Shown here: positions 1,233 to 40,487 of the stretch, piece after piece
How the letters are laid out: each line of letters starts with the position of its first letter
How positions within the stretch are numbered: position 1 is the first letter of the stretch
Notes under the pieces: model-generated
Seen by the model: the letters and a program-made list of their open reading frames with translations, nothing else
The model's database searches: none
Told to the model about the DNA's origin: nothing
Origin: Escherichia coli
Lineage (GTDB): Bacteria; Pseudomonadota; Gammaproteobacteria; Enterobacterales; Enterobacteriaceae
Direction: 5' to 3' (one strand)
DNA: 64,000 nucleotides
Assembly (NCBI RefSeq): GCF_048403405.1
Contig: NZ_CP183129.1
Position numbers and translations under genes: made by a program

Positions 1233-1246
1233 TTTAACATTAATGC

Positions 1247-1275
1247 CAAAAACCGGGGAAACCCGGTTTTTTTAT
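1247..1275 (+). terminator. rho-independent terminator after trpS
   Basis: GC hairpin ccgggg/ccccgg followed by a T-run. Confidence 0.6.
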
Positions 1276-1392
1276 CCTCTTTTTGCAATAATCCGAAAAA
1301 ATGTGAAGCGCCTCGCCGTTTCCACATCTCGCAGTTGCCACTTATCTTCATTTTTATGAAGATATAAATATTCACTTTATTGAAAATTTACT

Positions 1393-2298
1393 ATGCGTCG
1401 AACGTTTATCAAAAAAGAAGGCGTCGTCATCACGACACTGGCCCGTTATTTGTTGGGTGAAAAGTGCGGTAATCGACTGAAAACCATAGATGAGCTGGCA
1501 ACTGAATGCCGTTCATCCGTTGGCCTGACGCAGGCCGCGTTGAAAACGCTGGAATCAAGCGGAGCGATACGGATAGAACGCCGTGGGCGTAATGGCAGTT
1601 ATCTGGTGGAAATGGATAACAAAGCGCTGCTGAGTCATGTGGATATCAACAATGTGGTGTGCGCGATGCCCTTGCCCTATACCCGTTTGTACGAAGGCCT
1701 GGCGAGCGGATTGAAAGCTCAGTTTGATGGTATTCCTTTTTACTATGCGCACATGCGCGGCGCGGATATTCGCGTGGAGTGTTTACTTAACGGCGTGTAT
1801 GACATGGCGGTTGTTTCCCGACTGGCGGCGGAAAGTTATCTCACGCAAAAAGGGTTATGCCTCGCGCTGGAGCTGGGGCCGCATACCTACGTTGGCGAGC
1901 ACCAGTTGATTTGCCGTAAAGGCGAGTCCGCAAACGTGAAGCGCGTGGGGCTGGATAACCGTTCGGCGGATCAGAAAATCATGACCGATGTCTTTTTTGG
2001 CGATAGTGATGTGGAACGTGTCGATCTCTCTTATCACGAGAGTTTACAACGCATTGTTAAAGGCGATGTTGATGCGGTGATCTGGAACGTGGTGGCGGAA
2101 AACGAACTGACCATGCTGGGATTAGAAGCGACGCCGCTCACAGACGATCCGCGATTTTTACAGGCCACCGAAGCCGTAGTTTTGACGCGAGTCGATGATT
2201 ACCCAATGCAACAATTGCTGCGTGCAGTTGTTGATAAACAGGCCCTGCTTGCCCATCAACAACGAGTGGTCAGTGGGGAACAGGAACCCAGTTATTAA
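1393..2298 (+). CDS. yhfZ: uncharacterised protein with N-terminal HTH-like region (putative regulator)
   Basis: 301 aa ORF, first gene of the yhf/php cluster. Confidence 0.8.
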   Translation: MRRTFIKKEGVVITTLARYLLGEKCGNRLKTIDELATECRSSVGLTQAALKTLESSGAIRIERRGRNGSYLVEMDNKALLSHVDINNVVCAMPLPYTRLYEGLASGLKAQFDGIPFYYAHMRGADIRVECLLNGVYDMAVVSRLAAESYLTQKGLCLALELGPHTYVGEHQLICRKGESANVKRVGLDNRSADQKIMTDVFFGDSDVERVDLSYHESLQRIVKGDVDAVIWNVVAENELTMLGLEATPLTDDPRFLQATEAVVLTRVDDYPMQQLLRAVVDKQALLAHQQRVVSGEQEPSY

Positions 2299-2314
2299 AC
2301 GAAAGGCATCTGAA

Positions 2315-2677
2315 ATGGAAACCAGACTCAACCTGCTTTGCGATGCAGGCGTTATTGATAAGGACATCTGCAAAGGCATGATGCAGGTCGTCAATGTCCT
2401 GGAAACAGAGTGCCATCTACCGGTGCGCAGTGAGCAAGGAACGATGGCGATGACACATATGGCGAGTGCACTGATGCGCAGTCGCCGTGGTGAAGAAATA
2501 GAGCCGCTGGATGACGAATTGCTGGCAGAGCTGGCGCAATCCACTCACTGGCCAGCCATTTTACAATTGCATCAGGTGTTGTTGAAGGAATTCGCGCTGG
2601 AAGTTAACCCGTGTGAAGAAGGCTATTTGCTGGCCAACCTTTATGGATTATGGATGGCTGCTAACGAAGAGGTTTGA
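2315..2677 (+). CDS. yhfY: uncharacterised protein YhfY
   Basis: Internal ATG (METRLNLL...) with upstream gaaagg RBS, 17 nt after yhfZ stop; 120 aa. Confidence 0.7.
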   Translation: METRLNLLCDAGVIDKDICKGMMQVVNVLETECHLPVRSEQGTMAMTHMASALMRSRRGEEIEPLDDELLAELAQSTHWPAILQLHQVLLKEFALEVNPCEEGYLLANLYGLWMAANEEV

Positions 2678-2760
2678 AGCTCCCGACAAATCCACGTCGC
2701 ATAATCTAAATATTCAGAAAAATGAATATTTAATTCAAGGAACAGAAACGAGGCAACAAG

Positions 2761-3924
2761 ATGTTTGTAGAAGCATTGAAACGCCAGAACCCGGCGCTAA
2801 TTTCCGCCGCACTAAGCTTGTGGCAAAAGGGCAAGATCGCCCCGGACAGCTGGGTGATCGACGTGGATCAGATACTGGAAAACGGTAAGCGGCTGATTGA
2901 GACGGCGCGGCTTTACGGCATTGAACTGTATCTGATGACTAAGCAGTTTGGTCGTAATCCGTGGCTGGCGGAAAAACTGCTGCCATTAGGCTACAGCGGC
3001 ATTGTGGCGGTGGATTACAAAGAGGCGCGAGTCATGCGCCGCGCCGGTTTGCCGGTGGCGCATCAGGGGCATCTGGTACAAATCCCTTGTCATCAGGTTG
3101 CTGACGCCGTTGCACAGGGCACCGACGTCATCACCGTGTTTACTCTCGACAAAGCGCGGGAAGTTTCTGCGGCAGCGGTGAAGGCCGGACGTGTGCAGTC
3201 TGTGCTGCTCAAAGTTTATAGCGACGATGATTTTCTTTATCCGGGGCAGGAGAGCGGTTTTGTACAGCATTCGCTGCACGAGGTGGTTGCTGATATTAAG
3301 AAACTGCCGGGGCTGCATTTAGCCGGACTAACCCATTTCCCTTGCCTGCTTTGGGATGAGGCTGCCGGGAAAGTTTTGCCGACACCGAATCTTCACACGC
3401 TGGTACAAGCACGGGATCAACTGGCGAAATCTGGTATTGCGATTGAGCAACTGAACGCGCCTTCAGCGACCAGCTGCACTTCGCTGCCATTGCTGGCGGA
3501 ATACGGTGTGACTCATGCCGAACCCGGTCATGCGCTGACGGGCACTATTCCGGCAAACCAGCAGGGCGATCAGCCTGAACGTATCGCGATGCTCTGGTTA
3601 AGTGAAATCTCCCATCATTTTCGTGGCGACAGCTACTGCTACGGCGGCGGTTACTACCGTCGTGGTCACGCGCAACATGCGCTGGTGTTTACGCCAGAAA
3701 ATCAAAAGATTACTGAAACCAATCTCAAAACTGTGGATGACAGCAGTATCGACTACACCCTGCCGCTGGCAGGCGAGTTTCCGGTAAGCAGTGCAGTAGT
3801 GCTCTGTTTTCGCACGCAGATTTTTGTCACCCGTAGCGATGTGGTGCTGGTGTCTGGTATTCATCGTGGCGAACCGGAAATCGTCGGTCGTTATGACAGC
3901 CTCGGCAACCCTCTGGAGGCGTAA
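2761..3924 (+). CDS. yhfX: alanine-racemase-like PLP-dependent enzyme (putative)
   Basis: 387 aa ORF in conserved cluster. Confidence 0.8.
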   Translation: MFVEALKRQNPALISAALSLWQKGKIAPDSWVIDVDQILENGKRLIETARLYGIELYLMTKQFGRNPWLAEKLLPLGYSGIVAVDYKEARVMRRAGLPVAHQGHLVQIPCHQVADAVAQGTDVITVFTLDKAREVSAAAVKAGRVQSVLLKVYSDDDFLYPGQESGFVQHSLHEVVADIKKLPGLHLAGLTHFPCLLWDEAAGKVLPTPNLHTLVQARDQLAKSGIAIEQLNAPSATSCTSLPLLAEYGVTHAEPGHALTGTIPANQQGDQPERIAMLWLSEISHHFRGDSYCYGGGYYRRGHAQHALVFTPENQKITETNLKTVDDSSIDYTLPLAGEFPVSSAVVLCFRTQIFVTRSDVVLVSGIHRGEPEIVGRYDSLGNPLEA

Positions 3925-5151
3925 ATGGCGCGATTTGTGGTGTTAGTGATTGATAGCTTTGGCGTAGGGGCAATGAAAGATGTCACGTTGGTGCGTCCGC
4001 AGGATGCCGGGGCGAATACCTGTGGTCACATCCTGAGCCAGTTGCCGCATTTGCAGCTATCAGCGCTGGAGAAGCTGGGGCTAATCAACGCATTGGGTTA
4101 TGCACCAGGTGATATGCAACCGTCAGATTCCGCAACCTGGGGGGTGGCAGAGCTGCAACATGAAGGTGGCGATACCTTTATGGGGCATCAGGAAATTTTA
4201 GGCACGCGCCCGTTACCGCCGCTGCGGATGCCTTTTCGCGATGTGATTGACCGTGTTGAGCAGGCATTAGTATCCGCCGGTTGGCAGGTGGAGCGCCGTG
4301 GCGATGATCTGCAATTTCTGTGGGTCAATCAGGCGGTTGCGATTGGCGATAATCTCGAGGCGGATTTAGGCCAGGTCTATAACATCACCGTCAATCTCTC
4401 TGTGATCTCTTTTGACGACGCAATCAAAATTGGTCGTATCGTGCGTGAGCAGGTACAGGTCGGTCGGGTCATTACATTTGGCGGCCTGTTAACTGACAGT
4501 CAACGCATTCTCGATGCCGCAGAAAGTAAAGAAGGGCGCTTTATTGGCATTAATGCGCCGCGTTCAGGCGCTTATGACAACGGCTTCCAGGTCGTGCATA
4601 TGGGCTACGGTGTTGATGAAAAAGTGCAGGTGCCGCAAAAACTGTATGAAGCGGGCGTGCCAACCGTGCTGGTGGGTAAGGTGGCGGATATCGTCAGCAA
4701 TCCTTATGGCGTGAGCTGGCAAAACCTGGTGGATAGCCAGCGGATTATGGATATCACCCTCGACGAATTTAACACGCATCCGACGGCGTTTATTTGCACC
4801 AATATCCAGGAAACCGACCTCGCTGGTCACGCGGAAGACGTCGCACGTTATGCCGAACGTTTGCAGGTCGTTGACCGTAACCTTGCCCGGCTTATTGAGG
4901 CGATGCAGCCAGATGATTGCCTGGTCGTGATGGCGGATCACGGTAACGATCCGACCATTGGTCACAGCCACCATACCCGCGAAGTGGTGCCAGTGCTGGT
5001 TTATCAGCAAGGGATGGTCGCTACGCAGCTCGGTGTGCGCACCACGCTTTCTGATGTGGGGGCTACCGTGTGTGAATTTTTCCGTGCGCCACCGCCACAA
5101 AATGGTCGCTCTTTTCTTTCCTCCCTCCGGTTTGCAGGAGACACCCTATGA
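3925..5151 (+). CDS. yhfW: phosphopentomutase-like metalloenzyme (putative mutase)
   Basis: 408 aa ORF; contains DHGNDPT motif typical of the phosphopentomutase family. Confidence 0.8.
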
Positions 5152-6026
5152 GTATTGATCCGACGGGTTACACCCTCGCCCATGAGCATCTGCATATTGA
5201 TCTCTCCGGCTTTAAAAACAACGTGGACTGCCGCCTTGATCAGTATGCGTTCATTTGCCAGGAGATGAACGACCTGATGGCCCAGGGCGTGCGTAATGTG
5301 ATTGAGATGACCAACCGTTACATGGGGCGAAATGCGCAATTTATGCTCGATGTGATGCACGAAACTGGCATCAACGTGGTGGCCTGTACCGGTTATTACC
5401 AGGATGCGTTTTTCCCGCAACATGTGGCGACCCGCAGCGTACAGGAACTGGCGCAGGAGATGGTCGATGAAATTGATCAGGGTATCGATGGCACGGAACT
5501 GAAAGCCGGGATCATCGCGGAGATCGGCTCCAGCGAAGGGAAGATTACGCCGCTGGAAGAGAAGGTGTTTATTGCCGCCGCGCTGGCACATAACCAGACC
5601 GGACGCCCGATCTCCACGCATACGTCGTTCAGCACGATGGGGCTGGAACAACTGGCTCTGTTGCAAGCCCACGGAGTTGATCTTTCGCGCGTCACCGTTG
5701 GTCACTGCGATCTGAAAGACAACCTCGACAACATTTTGAAGATGATCGATCTCGGCGCGTATGTGCAGTTCGACACCATCGGCAAGAACAGTTACTACCC
5801 GGACGAAAGGCGCATTGCGATGCTCCACGCGCTACGTGACCGTGGTTTGCTGAACCGCGTCATGCTGTCGATGGATATTACGCGCCGCTCCCATTTAAAA
5901 GCCAACGGTGGTTATGGCTATGACTATTTATTGACCACCTTTATTCCGCAATTGCGCCAGTCAGGATTCAGTCAGGCCGATGTGGATGTGATGTTACGTG
6001 AAACTCCCTCTCAATTTTTCCAATAA
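5148..6026 (+). CDS. php: phosphotriesterase homology protein (amidohydrolase superfamily)
   Basis: 292 aa ORF; N-terminal HEHLHID metal-binding HxH motif. Confidence 0.85.
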
Positions 6027-6036
6027 GGACAGACTC

Positions 6037-6390
6037 ATGAAAAAGATTGGTGTTGCAGGCTTACAGCGTGAGCAGATTAAAAAAACCATTGAAGCGACGG
6101 CTCCTGGCTGTTTTGAAGTTTTCATTCACAACGACATGGAAGCGGCAATGAAAGTCAAATCCGAGCAACTGGATTACTACATCGGCGCGTGTAATACCGG
6201 TGCGGGCGCGGCATTGTCGATTGCCATCGCGGTGATTGGCTATAACAAAAGTTGCACCATTGCCAAACCAGGCATTAAAGCGAAAGACGAACATATCGCC
6301 AAAATGATCGCCGAAGGGAAAGTGGCGTTTGGGCTTTCCGTTGAGCACGTCGAACACGCGATTCCGATGCTGATTAACCATCTGAAATAA
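6037..6390 (+). CDS. yhfU: small uncharacterised protein YhfU
   Basis: 117 aa from internal ATG with aaggac RBS right after php stop. Confidence 0.7.
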   Translation: MKKIGVAGLQREQIKKTIEATAPGCFEVFIHNDMEAAMKVKSEQLDYYIGACNTGAGAALSIAIAVIGYNKSCTIAKPGIKAKDEHIAKMIAEGKVAFGLSVEHVEHAIPMLINHLK

Positions 6391-6401
6391 AAGGCACGAC
6401 T

Positions 6402-7706
6402 ATGGATCTGTATATTCAGATTATCGTGGTGGCGTGCCTGACGGGTATGACATCGCTTCTGGCGCATCGCTCGGCGGCTGTTTTTCATGACGGTATCCGC
6501 CCGATCCTGCCACAACTGATTGAAGGCTATATGAACCGTCGCGAGGCGGGGAGTATCGCTTTTGGTCTGAGCATTGGTTTTGTGGCCTCGGTGGGGATCT
6601 CGTTTACCCTGAAAACCGGGCTGCTCAACGCATGGTTACTCTTTCTTCCTACCGATATCCTCGGCGTACTGGCGATAAACAGCCTGATGGCGTTTGGTCT
6701 TGGCGCTATCTGGGGCGTGTTGATCCTTACTTGCCTGTTGCCGGTAAACCAGCTGCTGACCGCGCTACCGGTGGATGTATTAGGTAGCCTGGGGGAATTA
6801 AGCTCACCGGTGGTTTCAGCTTTTGCACTGTTCCCGTTGGTGGCGATTTTCTACCAGTTTGGCTGGAAGCAAAGTCTGATCGCCGCCGTGGTGGTACTGA
6901 TGACCCGTGTGGTGGTAGTGCGCTATTTCCCGCATCTCAATCCGGAATCCATCGAAATCTTTATTGGCATGGTGATGCTGCTGGGGATCGCGATAACTCA
7001 CGACCTGCGTCATCGTGATGAAAATGATATTGATGCCAGCGGGCTTTCGGTGTTTGAAGAACGCACGTCGCGGATTATCAAAAACTTACCGTATATCGCT
7101 ATTGTCGGGGCGCTGATTGCCGCCGTTGCCAGCATGAAGATTTTTGCTGGCAGTGAAGTGTCGATCTTCACACTGGAGAAAGCATATTCCGCAGGCGTAA
7201 CGCCGGAACAATCACAAACGCTGATTAACCAGGCAGCTCTGGCGGAATTTATGCGCGGGCTGGGTTTTGTACCGTTGATTGCCACCACCGCGTTAGCCAC
7301 TGGTGTGTATGCAGTTGCGGGCTTTACCTTTGTTTATGCGGTGGGCTATCTCTCGCCGAATCCGATGGTTGCAGCGGTATTAGGCGCAGTGGTTATTTCG
7401 GCGGAAGTCCTGCTGCTTCGTTCGATCGGCAAATGGCTGGGGCGCTACCCGTCGGTGCGTAATGCGTCGGATAACATCCGTAACGCCATGAATATGCTGA
7501 TGGAAGTGGCGTTGCTGGTCGGTTCGATTTTCGCAGCAATTAAAATGGCGGGTTATACCGGATTTTCTATCGCAGTTGCCATTTACTTCCTCAACGAATC
7601 CCTGGGCCGTCCGGTACAGAAAATGGCGGCACCGGTCGTGGCAGTAATGATCACCGGTATTCTGCTGAATGTTCTTTACTGGCTTGGCCTGTTCGTTCCG
7701 GCTTAA
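6402..7706 (+). CDS. yhfT: integral membrane protein, putative transporter
   Basis: 434 aa, highly hydrophobic with many predicted TM segments. Confidence 0.8.
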   Translation: MDLYIQIIVVACLTGMTSLLAHRSAAVFHDGIRPILPQLIEGYMNRREAGSIAFGLSIGFVASVGISFTLKTGLLNAWLLFLPTDILGVLAINSLMAFGLGAIWGVLILTCLLPVNQLLTALPVDVLGSLGELSSPVVSAFALFPLVAIFYQFGWKQSLIAAVVVLMTRVVVVRYFPHLNPESIEIFIGMVMLLGIAITHDLRHRDENDIDASGLSVFEERTSRIIKNLPYIAIVGALIAAVASMKIFAGSEVSIFTLEKAYSAGVTPEQSQTLINQAALAEFMRGLGFVPLIATTALATGVYAVAGFTFVYAVGYLSPNPMVAAVLGAVVISAEVLLLRSIGKWLGRYPSVRNASDNIRNAMNMLMEVALLVGSIFAAIKMAGYTGFSIAVAIYFLNESLGRPVQKMAAPVVAVMITGILLNVLYWLGLFVPA

Positions 7707-7717
7707 GGAAGGCACCT

Positions 7718-8803
7718 ATGAAGACGTTTCCTCTGCAAAGCCTGACGATTATTGAGGCGCAGCAAAAGCAGTTTGCGCTGGTGGACACGATTTGCCGCCA
7801 TTTTCCTGGTAGCGAATTTCTTACCTGCGGTGATTTGGGATTAACGCCGGGACTGAATCAACCGCGCATTACCCAGCGTGTGGAACAGGTGCTGGCTGAT
7901 GCATTTCACGCACAGGCTGCGGCGCTGGTACAGGGCGCGGGTACTGGCGCGATCCGTGCGGCGTTGGCGGCTTTGCTCAAACCGGGGCAGCGTCTTCTGG
8001 TGCATGACGCGCCGGTTTACCCGACGACTCAGGTCATTATTGAGCAGATGGGGCTGACGCTTATCACTGCTGATTTCAATGACCTGTTGGCACTGAAGCA
8101 GGTTGTCGACGAGCAACAACCAGATGCCGCGCTGGTGCAGCATACGCGCCAGCAGCCGCAGGACGGGTACATTCTGGCAGATGTGCTGGCAACGTTGCGC
8201 TCGGCTGGCGTTCCTGCATTAACCGATGACAACTATGCGGTGATGAAGGTAGCGCGAATTGGCTGCGAATGCGGGGCAAATGTCTCGACTTTTTCCTGCT
8301 TCAAGCTGTTTGGGCCGGAGGGTGTTGGCGCGGTGGTAGGCGATGCTGATGTTATTAACCGTATTCGCGCCACGCTCTACTCCGGCGGCAGCCAGATTCA
8401 GGGCGCTCAGGCGTTGGAAGTCTTGCGTGGGCTGGTGTTTGCGCCAGTGATGCACGCGGTGCAGGCGGGGGTATCTGAACGGTTGCTGGCCTTGCTCAAC
8501 GGTGGTGCAGTTCCGGAAGTGAAAAGCGCCGTCATTGCCAATGCACAGTCGAAGGTGTTGATTGTCGAGTTTCATCAGCCGATTGCCGCCAGAGTGCTGG
8601 AAGAGGCGCAAAAGCGCGGTGCCTTGCCTTACCCGGTTGGTGCAGAGTCGAAATATGAAATTCCACCGCTCTTTTATCGACTTTCCGGAACGTTTCGCCA
8701 GGTGAATCCGCAACTCGAACATTATGCGATTCGTATTAACCCAAATCGCAGCGGTGAAGAGACGGTGCTGCGGATTTTGCGTGAGAGTATTGCCAGTATT
8801 TAA
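7718..8803 (+). CDS. yhfS: uncharacterised enzyme, putative PLP-dependent
   Basis: 361 aa ORF, last gene of the cluster. Confidence 0.8.
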   Translation: MKTFPLQSLTIIEAQQKQFALVDTICRHFPGSEFLTCGDLGLTPGLNQPRITQRVEQVLADAFHAQAAALVQGAGTGAIRAALAALLKPGQRLLVHDAPVYPTTQVIIEQMGLTLITADFNDLLALKQVVDEQQPDAALVQHTRQQPQDGYILADVLATLRSAGVPALTDDNYAVMKVARIGCECGANVSTFSCFKLFGPEGVGAVVGDADVINRIRATLYSGGSQIQGAQALEVLRGLVFAPVMHAVQAGVSERLLALLNGGAVPEVKSAVIANAQSKVLIVEFHQPIAARVLEEAQKRGALPYPVGAESKYEIPPLFYRLSGTFRQVNPQLEHYAIRINPNRSGEETVLRILRESIASI

Positions 8804-8843
8804 TCTTGTGCATGATGTTTTCGAAAAGAATGCAGAAATAAAT

Positions 8844-8869
8844 ACGCCCTCGGGTAACCCCGAGGGCGT
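8844..8869. terminator. bidirectional hairpin between convergent yhfS and yhfL
   Basis: Perfect inverted repeat acgccctcggg-taac-cccgagggcgt. Confidence 0.55.
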
Positions 8870-8909
8870 CAGGCAATTAAACCGGTGTTAGCCGATTTCT
8901 GTCAGAGAC

Positions 8910-9077
8910 TTACTGTGCAGTAGGACCGCAACCGCCAATGATTTTAGAAATAGAAATTGCCGGGTGCAGCAGGTAGTCGTAAGAGCAGTTCTTATCACGG
9001 TTTTCAATATGACCAGTACATGCAGTTAACGTAGCCAGTACTGCGCCTACCAGTGCAACTTTAATAAATTTGTTCAT
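8910..9077 (-). CDS. yhfL: small lipoprotein
   Basis: 55 aa minus-strand ORF MNKFIKVALVGAVLATLTAC... with LTAC lipobox; below ORF-track length cutoff. Confidence 0.75.
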   Translation of the reverse strand: MNKFIKVALVGAVLATLTACTGHIENRDKNCSYDYLLHPAISISKIIGGCGPTAQ

Positions 9078-9293
9078 TTACATTCCCTATGTATTATATA
9101 TTAATTAATATTCATTGATTATATGAATATAAGCAGACTGCTCATTAAGAACGATACAGGAATATTCAATTAGCGTCAGTGAGCGATTGATTTAATTTTG
9201 TAAGTCGCTGTAACGGTGAATATAACCCATTAGCAGACAATATTTATTAAGGGGGTATCTTTTTATCTGCTGAATATATAAAGAGAGTTGTAA

Positions 9294-9320
9294 ACGAAAA
9301 AGGCCAGACTTCTCTGGCCC
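9294..9320 (-). terminator. terminator after cysG
   Basis: Hairpin ggccaga/tctggcc followed by a T-run on the minus strand. Confidence 0.5.
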
Positions 9321-9328
9321 TGGTTAAA

Positions 9329-10702
9329 TTAATGGTTAGAGAACCAGTTCAATTTATCGCGCAGGCCAACAACCCGACCAATAATAATTAGCGATGGACT
9401 GTTCATTTGCTGCGCCAGTTCGCCCAGCTGCGTGAGCGTACCGTCAATCACGCGCTGCGTGACTGCCGTTCCGTTTTCGACAATTGCCACCGGCATTTCG
9501 CCAGGCATACCGTGTTCAATCAGCTTTTGCTGAATAGTCGCAGCCTGATTCAGCCCCATATAAAACACCAGCGTCTGTTTTTCTGCCGCCAGGTTTTCCC
9601 AGTCCAGTTCGCCACCGGTTTTTAAGTGTCCGGTAATTAAGCGTACGCTCTGGGCATAATCGCGATGCGTGAGCGGAATACCCGAATAGGCAGAGCAACC
9701 AGAAGCTGCGGTAATACCCGGAACCACCGAGAACGGAATACCCGCGTTGCACAGTGTTTCCAGCTCTTCGCCACCACGGCCAAAAATAAACGGATCGCCA
9801 CCTTTCAGCCGCACCACGCGTTTGCCTTTTTGCGCTTCCCGCAGCAGGATCTGGTTTATCTCTTCCTGCGGTACGCAGTGGTATCCCGCGCGTTTGCCGA
9901 CGAAAACGCGATCCGCATCGCGGCGTACCAGATTCATAATATCGTCAGAAACCAGACGGTCGTAGACCACCACATCTGCCTGCTGAATTTGTTGCAGTCC
10001 TTTTAGTGTCAGCAGCCCGGCATCGCCCGGACCTGCGCCAACCAGCACCACTTCACCGCGATGGTCGAGCGGTTCGTTGATTAACTGTTCGGTCGTTTCA
10101 GTAATGGCTTTCTGATCGTTGTTTGCCAGCGACTGCGCCAGGCGGTCATTAACGAACAGTTTTTCCCAGAAACGGCGACGCTCACCCATCGTGGCGAACT
10201 GTTGTTTCACTCGCCCGCGTAATTGCCCGGCGTATTTCGCCACCTGGCCCAGATGCAACGGCAGCAGTGATTCAAGTTTTTCGCGTAACAGGCGCGCCAG
10301 AACCGGAGAGGTGCCGCCAGAGGAGACCGCGACCATTAGCGGTGAGCGGTCAATAATCGACGGCATAATAAAGCTGGCGGCTTTCGGCGCATCGACCACG
10401 TTACAGAAGATGCGACGAGCTTCAGCGGCTTCACTGACGCGCTGGTTAAGCGCGTCATCATCCGTCGCAGCAATTGCCAGCCAGCAGGTGTCGAGAAGGC
10501 TTTCATCAAATGGCCCTTCGACGAGGGTTAACATGCCTGCATCTGCCCATGCGGTGAACTGTGGAATAAACGCTAATGCATTCACCGTTAAGCGAGCGCC
10601 TGCGTCTAACAGCAACCTTGCTTTGCGTTCCGCGACATCACCACCGCCGACAATCAGACAGTCGCGATCGCGTAATTGGCAAAATATAGGCAAATGATCC
10701 AC
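9329..10702 (-). CDS. cysG: siroheme synthase
   Basis: 457 aa ORF, matches E. coli CysG. Confidence 0.95.
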
Positions 10703-10720
10703 GTAAAAACCCCTTAGTAA

Positions 10721-11527
10721 TTAACCGGCAGCTGTTTCAGTTTGATTAAATTTGTCCGCAACCGGACGATTCGCTTTCGGCGTAGCATACCAATAACCCA
10801 ATCCCATGAATACGGCACCTGATAAAGTATTACCCAGCGTCACCCACAGCAGGTTATGACCAATACCCGCCAGCGTGTAGGCTTCGCTGTGGTTGCCAAA
10901 CCAGGAGAGGGCGAACAGCGTCATGTTAGCGATGGAGTGCTCGTAGCCGGACGCGATAAATGCCAGCAGACACCACCAGATAGCGATAAATTTCGCCGCC
11001 CCTTCAGTGCGCAGCGCCATCCAGATTGCCAGGCAAACCAGCCAGTTACACAATGCACCTTTGAAGAACAGTACCATTGCCGGTGCAGTGGTTTTTGCCA
11101 GCGCGACGGAGTGAACGATGCTGGTATCTACCGGCAGCAGGCTACCGCCACCCCAGCTATAGAGCATGGCGACAAAGACGGAACCGACCAGGTTACCCAG
11201 CCAGGTTTGCGGCAGGATTGCCCACATTTGCCCGTGGCTGATAGTGCCCGCTTTCACCCCAAAGGTGAGGAACATGGTGTGTCCGGTGAACAGTTCAGAA
11301 CCAGCAATAATGACCAACGTTAAGGCGATACCAAAGGTCGCGCCCATCACCAGAGGACGTACGGACGGGTCGAGCAAATTACCGAGCGTGAAAATCAGGA
11401 TGATCCCAAGACCCACATACGCGCCCGCCATGGCGGAGCTGACCCAGAAGCCGAGCGGGTTATTTGCCGACAGGCGTGCAATGCGCGCAGCGTTAGCCGC
11501 ACACTTATTAATAGTGTCTGTAAACAT
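10721..11527 (-). CDS. nirC: nitrite transporter
   Basis: 268 aa hydrophobic ORF, formate/nitrite transporter family. Confidence 0.95.
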   Translation of the reverse strand: MFTDTINKCAANAARIARLSANNPLGFWVSSAMAGAYVGLGIILIFTLGNLLDPSVRPLVMGATFGIALTLVIIAGSELFTGHTMFLTFGVKAGTISHGQMWAILPQTWLGNLVGSVFVAMLYSWGGGSLLPVDTSIVHSVALAKTTAPAMVLFFKGALCNWLVCLAIWMALRTEGAAKFIAIWWCLLAFIASGYEHSIANMTLFALSWFGNHSEAYTLAGIGHNLLWVTLGNTLSGAVFMGLGYWYATPKANRPVADKFNQTETAAG

Positions 11528-11652
11528 TTGATTATCCTTTAAAAAATAAAAACAAAAAATAAAACAAAAAGTTTAAAAAATGTCCTGCAATATACCGAAG
11601 GTTATTACAGGACCATGCAAAAAGGGGAGGCATTGCGCCTCCCGTTAAAACA

Positions 11653-11979
11653 TTAACCGCGTAGCTGCACCACGCCGTCTTTCACTCGCGCGTCGTAATG
11701 CTTGACGGAAAACTGTTCGTCTTCCATGCACAAGCCGTCGCTTAAGCGAAAACGCTGTTTTTTCAGCGGGCTGGCGACCCACAGCTCGCCCTGGTGTTCC
11801 GCAATCAGCCCGCGTGACAGCACGCTGGACTCGAAGAACGGATCGATGTTGCTGATCGCAAACACCTGGTCGCTGTGATACGGGCGGAAAATCGCTACCT
11901 GCTCGTCACCTAACAGCGCGCAGACGCCGGTTTCAGGCAGGATGTCATCGATTTTGCAGATGTCTTTCCACTGGCTCAT
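11653..11979 (-). CDS. nirD: nitrite reductase small subunit
   Basis: 108 aa ORF overlapping the nirB stop. Confidence 0.95.
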   Translation of the reverse strand: MSQWKDICKIDDILPETGVCALLGDEQVAIFRPYHSDQVFAISNIDPFFESSVLSRGLIAEHQGELWVASPLKKQRFRLSDGLCMEDEQFSVKHYDARVKDGVVQLRG

Positions 11980-14519
11980 GCGTTGTCCTCCACCAGAGTT
12001 ACCGGGATACGTTCATACGGCGTTGCCGGACGGTGCTGTTCGCGCTCTGGCACCATCTGCACGTTCGGGTCACGCTTGTCGCTGTTGATGAAGTGTTTGA
12101 AGCGAGTCTGCGCGGACGGTGTATTGACCGTTTCAGTCCACTCACACACTACCGCTTCACGCAGGCGCGCCATCTCTTCTTCCAGATGAGCGTTCAGCCC
12201 CAGTTTGTCGTCAATGATCACCGCTTTCAGGTAATCGATGCCGCCTTCAAGGTTTTCTAACCACGGCGCGGTACGCGTCAGTTTGTCGGCAGTACGGATG
12301 TAGAACATCATGAAGCGGTCGAGATATTTGATCAGCGTTTCGCGATCGATATCCGCCGCCAGCAGATCCGCATGACGCGGTTTCATGCCGCCGTTACCGC
12401 AAACATACAGGTTCCAGCCTTTTTCGGTGGCGATGATACCCACGTCTTTACCCTGGGCTTCTGAACATTCACGGGTACAGCCGGAGACACCGAACTTCAT
12501 TTTGTGCGGCGTACGGATGCCTTTGTAGCGGTTTTCCAGTTCCACGCCGAGGCCGACGCTGTCGCCAACGCCGTAGCGGCACCAGGTGCTACCCACGCAG
12601 GTTTTCGCCATACGCAGTGCTTTCGCATAGGCATGACCGGTTTCGAAGCCAGCTTCAATCAGCTGACGCCAGATCTCCGGCAGATCGTCTTTCTGTGCGC
12701 CAAACATCGCCAGGCGCTGGGAGCCGGTGATTTTGGTGTAGAGATTAAATTCACGCGCGATACGACCTACTGCCATCAGCCCTTCCGGGGTGATTTCACC
12801 GCCCGGAGAACGCGGGATCACCGAGTAGGTGCCGTCTTTCTGGATGTTAGCGAGGAAGTTATCGTTAGAATCCTGCAGCGGAGTATGTTCCGGTTTCAGA
12901 ATGTATTCGTTCCAGCAGGAGGCCAGCAGCGAACCGACGGTCGGTTTACAAACTTCACAACCGTAGCCTTTGCCGTGTTTCGCCAGCAGTTCTTCGAAGG
13001 TTTTAATGCCTTCAACGCGGATTAAATGGAACAGTTCCTGACGCGAATAAGCAAAGTGTTCGCACAGGTTGTTGTTAACTTCGATGCCCTGTTTCGCCAG
13101 TTCCGCGTTCAGTACCTGAGTGACCAGCGGGATACAGCCACCGCAGCCAGTACCCGCTTTGGTTTCAGCTTTCAGCGCCGCAACGGTGTGACAGCCTTTG
13201 TTGATAGCAGCAATCAGGTCGCCTTTGGTGACGTCGAAGCAGGAGCAGATTTGCGCGCTGTCCGGCAGTTTATCAACACCGATAGACGGCTTACCGCTAC
13301 CAGAGTGCGCCGGCAGAATCAGAGAATCCGGGTTTTCCGGCAGCTCGATAGCATTCAGCACCAGTTGCAGCAGGTTGCCGTAGTCGCTGGTATCGCCCAC
13401 CAGTACCGCACCGAGCAGGGTTTTGTTGTCTTCGCTGACAATAAGGCGTTTGTAGATCTCTTTGCTTTCGTCGAGGTAAACGTAGCTACGTGCGCCAGGT
13501 GTGCGACCGTGCGCATCACCAATACCGCCTACGTCTACGCCCAGCAGTTTCAGCTTGGCGCTAAGGTCAGCACCTTCAAAGGCGTTTTCGCTACCGAGAA
13601 TATGGTCAACGGCGACCTGCGCCATTTTGTAGCCTGGTGCTACCAGACCAAATACACGGTTGTTCCAGCTTGCGCATTCACCGATGGCGTAGATATCCGG
13701 ATCGGAAGTCTGGCAGGAATCATTAATGACAATACCCCCACGCGGAGCAACGTCCAGACCACACTGGGTTGCCAGCTTATCGCGCGGACGGATACCGGTA
13801 GAGAAGACGATAAAGTCGACTTCCAGTTCGCTGCCGTCGGCAAAACGCATGGTTTTACGCGCTTCAACACCTTCCTGCACAATCTCAAGGGTGTTTTTGC
13901 TGGTGTGAACGCGCACGCCCATACTTTCGATTTTGCGACGCAGCTGCTCGCCGCCCATCTGATCAAGCTGTTCCGCCATCAGCATAGGGGCAAATTCGAT
14001 AACGTGGGTTTCAATACCTAAGTTTTTCAGCGCGCCAGCGGCTTCCAGACCTAACAGGCCGCCACCAACAACGGCACCGCGTTTGCTGCGACGGGCACAG
14101 GATTCAATGGCGTTGAGGTCTTCAATGGTGCGATAGACAAAGCAGTCCTGAGTATCAGAACCTTTGATTGGCGGGATCCACGGGTAGGAACCGGTCGCCA
14201 TGATCAGCTTGTCATAAAAAACGGTGCGCCCGGCGCTGGAGTGAATCACCTTCTCCTGACGGTTGATGGTGATAGCGCGTTCGCCGACCAGAACTTTGAT
14301 GCCGTGTTTCTCGTAGAAGCCTTCGCGCACCAGCGACAGCTCTTCGGCGGTGTGGTGAGAGAAGTAAGACGAGAGGTGTACGCGGTCATAAGCGATGCGC
14401 GGTTCTTCACAGAAAACGGTAATATCAAAGTTGGCCGCATCAGATTTATCAAGAAGATCTTCGATAAAGCGATGGCCGACCATACCGTTACCGATAATTG
14501 CGAGTCTGACTTTGCTCAT
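11976..14519 (-). CDS. nirB: NADH-dependent nitrite reductase large subunit
   Basis: 847 aa ORF; N-terminal FAD/NAD Rossmann GxGxxG. Confidence 0.95.
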   Translation of the reverse strand: MSKVRLAIIGNGMVGHRFIEDLLDKSDAANFDITVFCEEPRIAYDRVHLSSYFSHHTAEELSLVREGFYEKHGIKVLVGERAITINRQEKVIHSSAGRTVFYDKLIMATGSYPWIPPIKGSDTQDCFVYRTIEDLNAIESCARRSKRGAVVGGGLLGLEAAGALKNLGIETHVIEFAPMLMAEQLDQMGGEQLRRKIESMGVRVHTSKNTLEIVQEGVEARKTMRFADGSELEVDFIVFSTGIRPRDKLATQCGLDVAPRGGIVINDSCQTSDPDIYAIGECASWNNRVFGLVAPGYKMAQVAVDHILGSENAFEGADLSAKLKLLGVDVGGIGDAHGRTPGARSYVYLDESKEIYKRLIVSEDNKTLLGAVLVGDTSDYGNLLQLVLNAIELPENPDSLILPAHSGSGKPSIGVDKLPDSAQICSCFDVTKGDLIAAINKGCHTVAALKAETKAGTGCGGCIPLVTQVLNAELAKQGIEVNNNLCEHFAYSRQELFHLIRVEGIKTFEELLAKHGKGYGCEVCKPTVGSLLASCWNEYILKPEHTPLQDSNDNFLANIQKDGTYSVIPRSPGGEITPEGLMAVGRIAREFNLYTKITGSQRLAMFGAQKDDLPEIWRQLIEAGFETGHAYAKALRMAKTCVGSTWCRYGVGDSVGLGVELENRYKGIRTPHKMKFGVSGCTRECSEAQGKDVGIIATEKGWNLYVCGNGGMKPRHADLLAADIDRETLIKYLDRFMMFYIRTADKLTRTAPWLENLEGGIDYLKAVIIDDKLGLNAHLEEEMARLREAVVCEWTETVNTPSAQTRFKHFINSDKRDPNVQMVPEREQHRPATPYERIPVTLVEDNA

Positions 14520-37145: not shown

Positions 37146-38387
<1,242 letters not shown>

Positions 38388-38411
38388 TTACACGTTAATT
38401 AGTTTCGAATT

Positions 38412-38439
38412 AAAAAGGGCGCTTCGGCGCCCTTTTTGC
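38412..38439 (+). terminator. terminator after tufA
   Basis: Hairpin aaaagggcgc-ttcg-gcgccctttttg. Confidence 0.65.
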
Positions 38440-38569
38440 TGCCCGTAATTTGAGCTCGAAATATTTAGTCGTAATTTCACTCGCTGAACTATGGCGCAAA
38501 TAAAACTGTGCTATTGTAATCATAACCATTCTCATTTACACTTTGCGCAGAATTTGAACGGGAGCAATC

Positions 38570-38764
38570 ATGTACGTTTGTTTGTGTAATGGTGTAAGTG
38601 ACAAAAAAATTCGCCAGGCAGTCCGTCAGTTTCATCCGCAATCTTTCCAACAATTGCGTAAGTTTATTCCTGTGGGAAATCAATGCGGTAAGTGCATTCG
38701 CGCCGCGCGCGAAGTGATGCAGGACGAGTTGATGCAGATGCCAGAATTTAAAGAGATTGCCTGA
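38570..38764 (+). CDS. bfd: bacterioferritin-associated ferredoxin
   Basis: 64 aa with CxC...CGKC [2Fe-2S] ligands. Confidence 0.9.
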   Translation: MYVCLCNGVSDKKIRQAVRQFHPQSFQQLRKFIPVGNQCGKCIRAAREVMQDELMQMPEFKEIA

Positions 38765-38836
38765 AGCCCACGCTTATTTTTTGACATCCCGCTAGCCCCA
38801 TCTACGCTCTAATAGTGGAAGCGGAGGGACTATAAA

Positions 38837-39313
38837 ATGAAAGGTGATGTTAAAATCATAAATTATCTCAATAAACTATTGGGAAATGAGCTTGTCGCAA
38901 TCAATCAGTATTTTCTCCATGCCCGGATGTTTAAAAACTGGGGCCTGATGCGTCTCAATGACGTCGAATACCATGAATCTATCGATGAGATGAAACACGC
39001 TGATAAATATATCGAGCGTATTTTGTTTTTAGAAGGAATCCCCAACTTACAGGATTTAGGCAAACTGGGGATTGGTGAAGATGTCGAGGAGATGCTGCAA
39101 TCCGACCTGCGATTAGAACTGGAAGGCGCTAAGGATCTCCGTGAGGCTATCGCGTATGCCGACAGCGTTCATGACTATGTTAGCCGTGATATGATGATCG
39201 AGATCCTTGCCGATGAAGAAGGTCATATTGACTGGCTCGAAACTGAGCTGGATCTCATCGGTAAAATCGGTCTACAAAATTACCTGCAATCACAAATAAA
39301 AGTTAAAGATTAA
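38837..39313 (+). CDS. bfr: bacterioferritin
   Basis: 158 aa ferritin-like. Confidence 0.95.
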
Positions 39314-39777
39314 CGGCCTGCCAGCAAACTATCCCAGCCTACAACGAAACCCGCAGCCGCCAGAAATGGCCCAAACGGCAGCGGGTTTTTTAATGACTCT
39401 TTTCCTCTCATGAGCAGACCAATAACTACGGCTCCGCAAGCGAATGAGGCAGCAAGGAAAACCAGTCGTGGCAAGAAGGTCCATGTATGCCAGGCACCAA
39501 GGGCGGCGAGAAACTTCACATCACCATAGCCTAATCCTTCTTTATGACGCAGTATGCGATACCCCCAGTAAATGACAGCGAATGTGCCGTAACCAATAAT
39601 CGCCCCCCATAACGCATCGGCTAAACCGTCAGGATTACAAACCTGATAGAACAAAAGACCTGACCAGAGTAACGGGCACGTAAATCTGTCAGGTAACAAG
39701 CCATGCTTTGCATCCCAGAAAAAAAGTAGGGCTGATAAACAAGCGTACAAAATCAGAAAGGGAAGGGTAGCGTCCAT
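39310..39777 (-). CDS. short prepilin (leader) peptidase, A24 family
   Basis: 155 aa hydrophobic ORF with [14 protein letters not shown] motif; 3' end overlaps bfr stop; corresponds to the position of gspO/hopD. Confidence 0.7.
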
Positions 39778-39950
39778 AAAACATCCTCTGTAATTGGAGT
39801 ATCACCATCGAATAACTCCGGATGCTCAGCAACAGAGAAATCGCTGATTTGTTAACCTGGTTCCGGTGAAAAACGCTATCTTCACAACTTTACAAATTTC
39901 GTGGAATACAGCTCGCAATCTGCGCGTTGCGATTAATTTCTACCCGATGC

Positions 39951-39978
39951 TTGCGTCAGGCTCAGATTTGCGTATAAT
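39951..39978 (+). promoter_or_regulatory. S10 operon promoter
   Basis: TTGCGT (39951-39956), 16 bp spacer, TATAAT (39973-39978), GC-rich discriminator. Confidence 0.55.
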
Positions 39979-40467
<489 letters not shown>

Positions 40468-40487
40468 TCAGGTCATTGAGCGATTGA

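Follow-up and report, generated by a model that had tools for sequence, protein, structure and literature searches.

A probably ancestral empty frl site between yhfS and yhfL in Escherichia coli, beside the predicted terminator of yhfL

Does an Escherichia coli chromosome in which yhfS and yhfL adjoin one another, with none of the frl genes that lie between them in K-12, preserve a site that the frl operon never entered, or did it once carry the operon and lose it? We address this question for one E. coli sequence of 64,000 nucleotides, here called the window; its features around the junction are collected in Table 1. The first 25 kb of the window are 100% identical to the strains MS 69-1, TUM1226 and TUM14771 and to three others. 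The two genes are convergent and directly adjacent, with no gene between them, and the initial annotation was right in placing them only 106 bp apart. The gene yhfS is the final member of the yhfZYXW-php-yhfUTS cluster; its product shares 96.4% of its amino acids with K-12 YhfS, and the gene carries the name yhfS in the annotation of a genome with an identical junction region. The YhfL protein is 100% identical to that of K-12. A search of the spacer and the region upstream of yhfL for Rfam matches at E <= 1 returned none, and positions 8600-9400 contain no promoter-like sites, against 2.1 expected by chance.

Table 1. Features at the yhfS-yhfL junction, in window coordinates
Feature	Position	Strand	Description	Basis
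yhfS	7718..8803	+	PLP-dependent aminotransferase-fold enzyme	ORF; Pfam YhfS-like_C, E = 4.7e-45
yhfS-yhfL spacer	8804..8909		106 bp, yhfS stop to yhfL stop; frl-less ("empty") site	
Empty-site-specific stretch	8805..8833		29 bp; replaced in K-12 by the 5,242-bp frl segment	blastn
Predicted rho-independent terminator hairpin of yhfL	8844..8869	-	11-bp stem, 4-nt loop	terminator scan and fold
Second, weaker hairpin	8879..8898	-	7 bp, in the yhfL 3' untranslated region	minimum-energy and centroid structures
yhfL	8910..9077	-	predicted small lipoprotein, 55 aa	Pfam DUF4223, E = 5e-38
cysG	9329..10702	-	siroheme synthase; conserved right-hand flank	

The initial annotation had placed frlABCDR of K-12 between yhfL and yhfS, and the annotated order in the K-12 derivative DH5a agrees: yhfS, frlR, frlD, frlC, frlB, frlA, yhfL, cysG, with a gap of 5,319 bp between yhfS and yhfL. 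In blastn the homology between the window and K-12 ends at 8804, one base past the yhfS stop codon, and resumes at 8834, K-12 having 5,242 bp in the place of the 29 bp at 8805-8833. The right breakpoint is uncertain by about 12 bp, as a weak similarity to K-12 just left of the hairpin (AAGAAGGACATAGAAAC versus AAAGAATGCAGAAAT) may reach back to about 8822. We looked for the 29-bp stretch at both K-12 junctions and found no convincing match. Read from the yhfS side, the K-12 segment consists of about 40 bp of unique sequence, a boxC-type repeat, a REP element, the genes frlR to frlA and, upstream of frlA, a further 220 bp or so. According to Wiame et al., the K-12 frlABCDR genes reportedly serve the utilisation of fructoselysine and psicoselysine. 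The two loci agree in their flanking genes and in the terminator hairpin beside yhfL, but K-12 has the 5,242 extra bp and is without the 29-bp stretch, and its hairpin, unlike that of the window, is imperfect, with 8 outer pairs and an interrupted inner part. Nucleotide identity between the two is 92.8% over yhfS and 94.9% over yhfL-cysG, which bears out the earlier statement that the strain is not K-12-like at this locus.

Both states of the locus are widespread. The contiguous yhfS-yhfL junction is present in 2,105 of 5,426 complete E. coli genomes, and 80% or more of the frl segment of K-12 in 3,297 of them, confirming that frl is variably present; the two counts add up to 5,402, consistent with two disjoint sets. 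In the frl-less genomes sampled among the matches listed, the frl query matched only at the boxC/REP repeats, about 1% of its length. The frl-less set includes the B2 strains Nissle 1917 (EcN) and UTI89 and also strain 118UI, which belongs to ST69/phylogroup D (PMC8900328). The junction of the window is 100% identical to that of 118UI over 1.1 kb, and therefore the frl-less state is not confined to B2. The locus of the frl-less B2/ExPEC strains (EcN, UTI89 and clone D i14) has the same order as the window (trpS, yhfZ...yhfS, yhfL, cysG) and a homologous spacer of 106-107 bp that includes both the 29-bp stretch and the terminator hairpin; these strains, like the window, have no frlB elsewhere. 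The window allele is nevertheless different from those of EcN and UTI89, with an identity to them of about 94% across the junction and of 92% in yhfS. A separate case is E. coli A30, isolated from a horse (NZ_CP092500.1, 4.45 Mb), in which the junction query matched only from within cysG onward. A30 thus appears to be without yhfL and yhfS, which points to a larger deletion at this locus in a reduced genome.

The explanation that we consider highly probable as a whole is that the empty site is ancestral and the K-12 insertion derived, that the hairpin terminates yhfL, and that the strain would not grow on fructoselysine or psicoselysine. An ancestral site that had never been occupied would have received the 5.2-kb segment in the lineage leading to K-12-type E. 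coli, and the incoming segment would have comprised frlABCDR, for fructoselysine and psicoselysine catabolism, together with the boxC and REP pair and the frlA promoter region. The direction of this change, an insertion rather than a deletion, we infer from the distribution of the spacer. Over its full length, the 29 bp included, the spacer can be aligned with those of EcN (B2), of 24A16CRGN010, which carries a divergent empty-site E. coli allele, of E. albertii, and of SCPM-O-B-8794, a divergent Escherichia whose cysG and nirC are 93.5-95.5% identical to those of K-12. Deleting frl could not have restored a spacer that is also present in E. albertii, and for this reason the empty site appears to be the ancestral one.

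The same arrangement extends beyond the genus. We scanned for outgroups with a YhfL query and one genome per prokaryotic species, which gave 39 loci; E. fergusonii and Salmonella are not among them. The yhfS...yhfZ-trpS block directly follows yhfL, with no frl in between, in E. albertii, Citrobacter werkmanii, Citrobacter sp. FP75, Superficieibacter electus, Buttiauxella agrestis and Enterobacter sp. ENT03; in about 18 further loci of Enterobacterales (Enterobacter, Citrobacter, Leclercia, Lelliottia and Hafnia) yhfL and trpS adjoin directly. The frl genes occur at only one of the 39 loci, that of the Escherichia genome E69.

Secondary loss, in which an ancestor that carried frl deleted the 5.2-kb segment and left the 106-bp spacer as a deletion scar, has two points in its favor: the frl+ haplotype appears to be old and is also present in the divergent E69, so that frl could predate the lineage of the strain, and the published wording describes the genes of B2 strains as "missing" (PMC5996543). 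However, the 29 bp are absent from every frl+ haplotype examined (K-12, O157:H7 and E69), yet they are kept in both E. albertii and a further divergent Escherichia. When the frl segment was compared with the window in blastn, nothing of boxC, REP, frlR or the frlA promoter was found. The empty-site alleles differ from one another by 5-8% across the junction, which marks them as old alleles and not as recent independent deletions, and the adjacency of yhfL and yhfS in the outgroup genera also speaks against a loss. We therefore regard secondary loss as very unlikely.

An ancestral empty site at this locus could be combined with a copy of frl at another chromosomal or plasmid site, and the direct search of the source genome covered the 64-kb window. 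The initial annotation had proposed a search for frl elsewhere. In neither the spacer nor the whole window did tblastn and blastn find Frl proteins or frl DNA (no homologue at E <= 1e-3). For other genomes we used a chimeric query that joined the window junction (a 2-kb part) to K-12 frlB in reverse orientation, at megablast sensitivity. All 23 sampled empty-site chromosomes gave one matching place, and hence have no frlB, while K-12-like genomes gave three places and O157-like genomes two. In the top match, TUM14771, whose identity to the window is 100% both over the 2-kb junction part and over window positions 1-25000, the chromosome is without frlB. Only 3 of the 11,694 matching places in the whole collection are borne on plasmids, and the near-complete sum of the two sets of genomes also argues against frl copies that accompany an empty site. 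The absence of frl from the strain would thus rest on the 64-kb window together with near-identical proxy genomes, and a relocated operon seems even less probable than a loss. That the junction is an assembly collapse or misjoin can be dismissed almost with certainty, since 2,105 complete genomes of independent projects have the same junction in unbroken form, as do E. albertii and other genera, each of the two flanking genes is intact, and a conserved predicted terminator lies in the spacer.

The hairpin in the spacer had been described as perfect, and 11 perfect pairs are indeed seen at 8844-8869: the structure reads ACGCCCTCGGG-TAAC-CCCGAGGGCGT, and 9 of the 11 pairs are G-C. Folding of the whole spacer gives -35.2 kcal/mol, compared with -21.7 +/- 3.1 for shuffled sequences (z = -4.3), and none of 200 shuffles was as stable. 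The stem begins 40 nt past the yhfL stop codon and is followed on the - strand by the tail ATTTATTTCT, while the tail that follows it on the + strand is CAGGCAATTA; the terminator scan reports a hairpin with a T-rich tail on the - strand only. A G+C-rich stem-loop followed by a U-rich tract, downstream of yhfL and on the same strand, has the form of an intrinsic terminator. Because of these two tails we read the hairpin as the intrinsic terminator of yhfL, a function predicted from its structure, and not as a scar of the junction; the latter idea is rejected since the same hairpin is present in strains that carry frl. A bidirectional terminator that also serves yhfS is rejected as the main reading because the + strand has no T-tract after the stem, and with the tail CAGGCAATTA the hairpin should be a poor terminator for yhfS. 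In the strain of the window, yhfS and yhfL would simply converge, with the hairpin and its U-rich tail ending the transcription of yhfL, and the hairpin would do the same job in frl-carrying strains.

The hairpin is kept beside yhfL in K-12, O157:H7, E69, EcN and E. albertii. Its outer 8 pairs are invariant across Escherichia and its inner pairs variable: the K-12 and EcN hairpins have single mismatches in the inner pairs, and E. albertii has one two-sided compensatory change from G-C to A-U. In other genera this position is taken by a different terminator hairpin, composed of an A-tract, a stem and a T-tract. The second hairpin in the window (8879-8898) contains one G-U wobble pair, which forms on the - strand only, and is also predicted in most other Escherichia sequences.

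Is the segment that occupies this site in K-12 a mobile island? The junction was at first described as the empty site of a variably present metabolic island. The description of the site as empty and variable stands, but "island" is a loose term here because there are no direct repeats or scar, no tRNA or integrase, and the G+C content is typical. The initial annotation had proposed looking for short direct repeats or scars at the K-12 boundaries, and only chance-level matches were found: the two boundaries have only direct 6-mers in common, where shuffled sequences give 7-mers by chance in 36% of cases, and the inverted repeats at the insertion boundaries are likewise 6-7-mers at chance level. 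We found no integrase, transposase or adjacent tRNA at the K-12 segment, whose annotation consists of frlR, frlD, frlC, frlB and frlA only, and its neighbours are yhfS and yhfL, with no tRNA. The frl segment has 53.8% G+C, compared with 53.8% in the yhf flank and 51.5% in the right flank; this likeness to its surroundings leads us to reject a compositional signature of horizontal transfer. The K-12 segment is a variable operon without signs of mobility and not a classical genomic island.

The genome E69 (CP089930.1), which is labelled E. coli, is 94.5-97.1% identical to K-12 in cysG and nirC. Its locus (3921-9249) has frlABCDR at the exact K-12 junctions, the boxC/REP repeats included, with about 93% identity between its frl DNA and that of K-12. 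The presence of frl at identical junctions in so divergent a genome, and with this degree of divergence, marks the frl+ haplotype as old and as one that cuts across deep lineages of Escherichia. The haplotype is found in E. coli A/B1/E and in E69, and the frl-less state in E. coli B2 and D, in another divergent Escherichia lineage and in E. albertii. These sequences do not establish a single recent gain in an ancestor of A/B1/C/E, and the distribution of frl is probably due to recombination or lineage sorting rather than to one recent gain. More tentatively, and with clearly less confidence, one could imagine that the presence and absence of frl form an ancient cross-lineage polymorphism, both states of which are kept by diet- or niche-dependent selection and exchanged by homologous recombination.

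The gene yhfS (7718-8803), and more generally the region 7000-9500, is a local hot spot of diversity. In yhfS, the window, K-12 and EcN are 91-92.5% identical to one another at the nucleotide level, but the YhfS proteins are about 96% identical, so that most of the changes in yhfS are synonymous; the nearby cysG and nirC are 97-98% identical. The idea that linkage to the frl polymorphism generates this diversity is not supported, since the window and EcN, both of which are frl-less, share 92.0% identity and are thus as far apart as frl+ and frl-less alleles.

A third arrangement occurs in O157:H7. It has the same yhfL-cysG flank and the same terminator hairpin as the window but is otherwise its opposite: frl is present and the whole yhfZYXW-php-yhfUTS cluster is absent. 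In O157:H7 strain ECP19-598 the interval 6776-12077, which corresponds to window positions 1233-8909, reads trpS, boxC and REP, frlRDCBA, yhfL; its frlD, which has an internal stop, is annotated as a pseudogene. Given this third arrangement, the interval between trpS and yhfL is composed of two independently variable modules. Arithmetic on the counts of matching places suggests that about 340-370 of the 5,426 genomes have the O157:H7-type arrangement.

Another part of the window invites a similar comparison. The annotation of MS 69-1, which is 99.98% identical to the window, places bfd and bfr directly after tuf and has a prepilin peptidase gene as the only gene from bfr to rpsJ (window about 37200-40470). 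K-12 presumably has chiA between tufA and bfd, and a gspA-O type II secretion cluster that separates bfr from rpsJ. If it does, then the tuf-rpsJ region would be a second difference in gene content between K-12 and the window.

The absence of frl is a common and already documented gene-content polymorphism of E. coli. The frl operon and its transporter are missing from B2 strains, and genome-scale metabolic models predict growth on fructoselysine for 0-3% of B2 strains versus 69-91% of other groups (PMC5996543); the absence of fructoselysine and psicoselysine degradation has been called "a hallmark of B2 strains" (bioRxiv 10.1101/2025.09.14.675865). In metabolic models the frl trait already sets strains of the B2/ExPEC type apart from those of the K-12 type and from most intestinal pathogens. 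What we add is the polarity of the change, the empty site being probably the ancestral one, together with the exact position of the breakpoints, the absence of signatures of mobility, the predicted role of the hairpin and the third arrangement in O157:H7, and also that the frl-less state reaches an ST69/phylogroup D allele. Neither the polarity nor the extension to ST69/phylogroup D changes the current understanding.

In the mouse gut, an evolving phylogroup A E. coli is reported to adapt in parallel through the yhfL/frlA intergenic region, frlR, frlA and frlC (bioRxiv 10.64898/2026.05.27.728231). The intergenic stretch of K-12 that separates yhfL from frlA (8783-9076 of the K-12 locus) has no counterpart in the window left of 8834. 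Strains without frl, that of the window included, cannot take this adaptive route. With the entire pathway absent, the strain should not grow on either fructoselysine or psicoselysine. The absence of frl is in this sense a strain marker, which places the strain among the approximately 39% of sequenced E. coli that would not be expected to use these dietary Amadori compounds.
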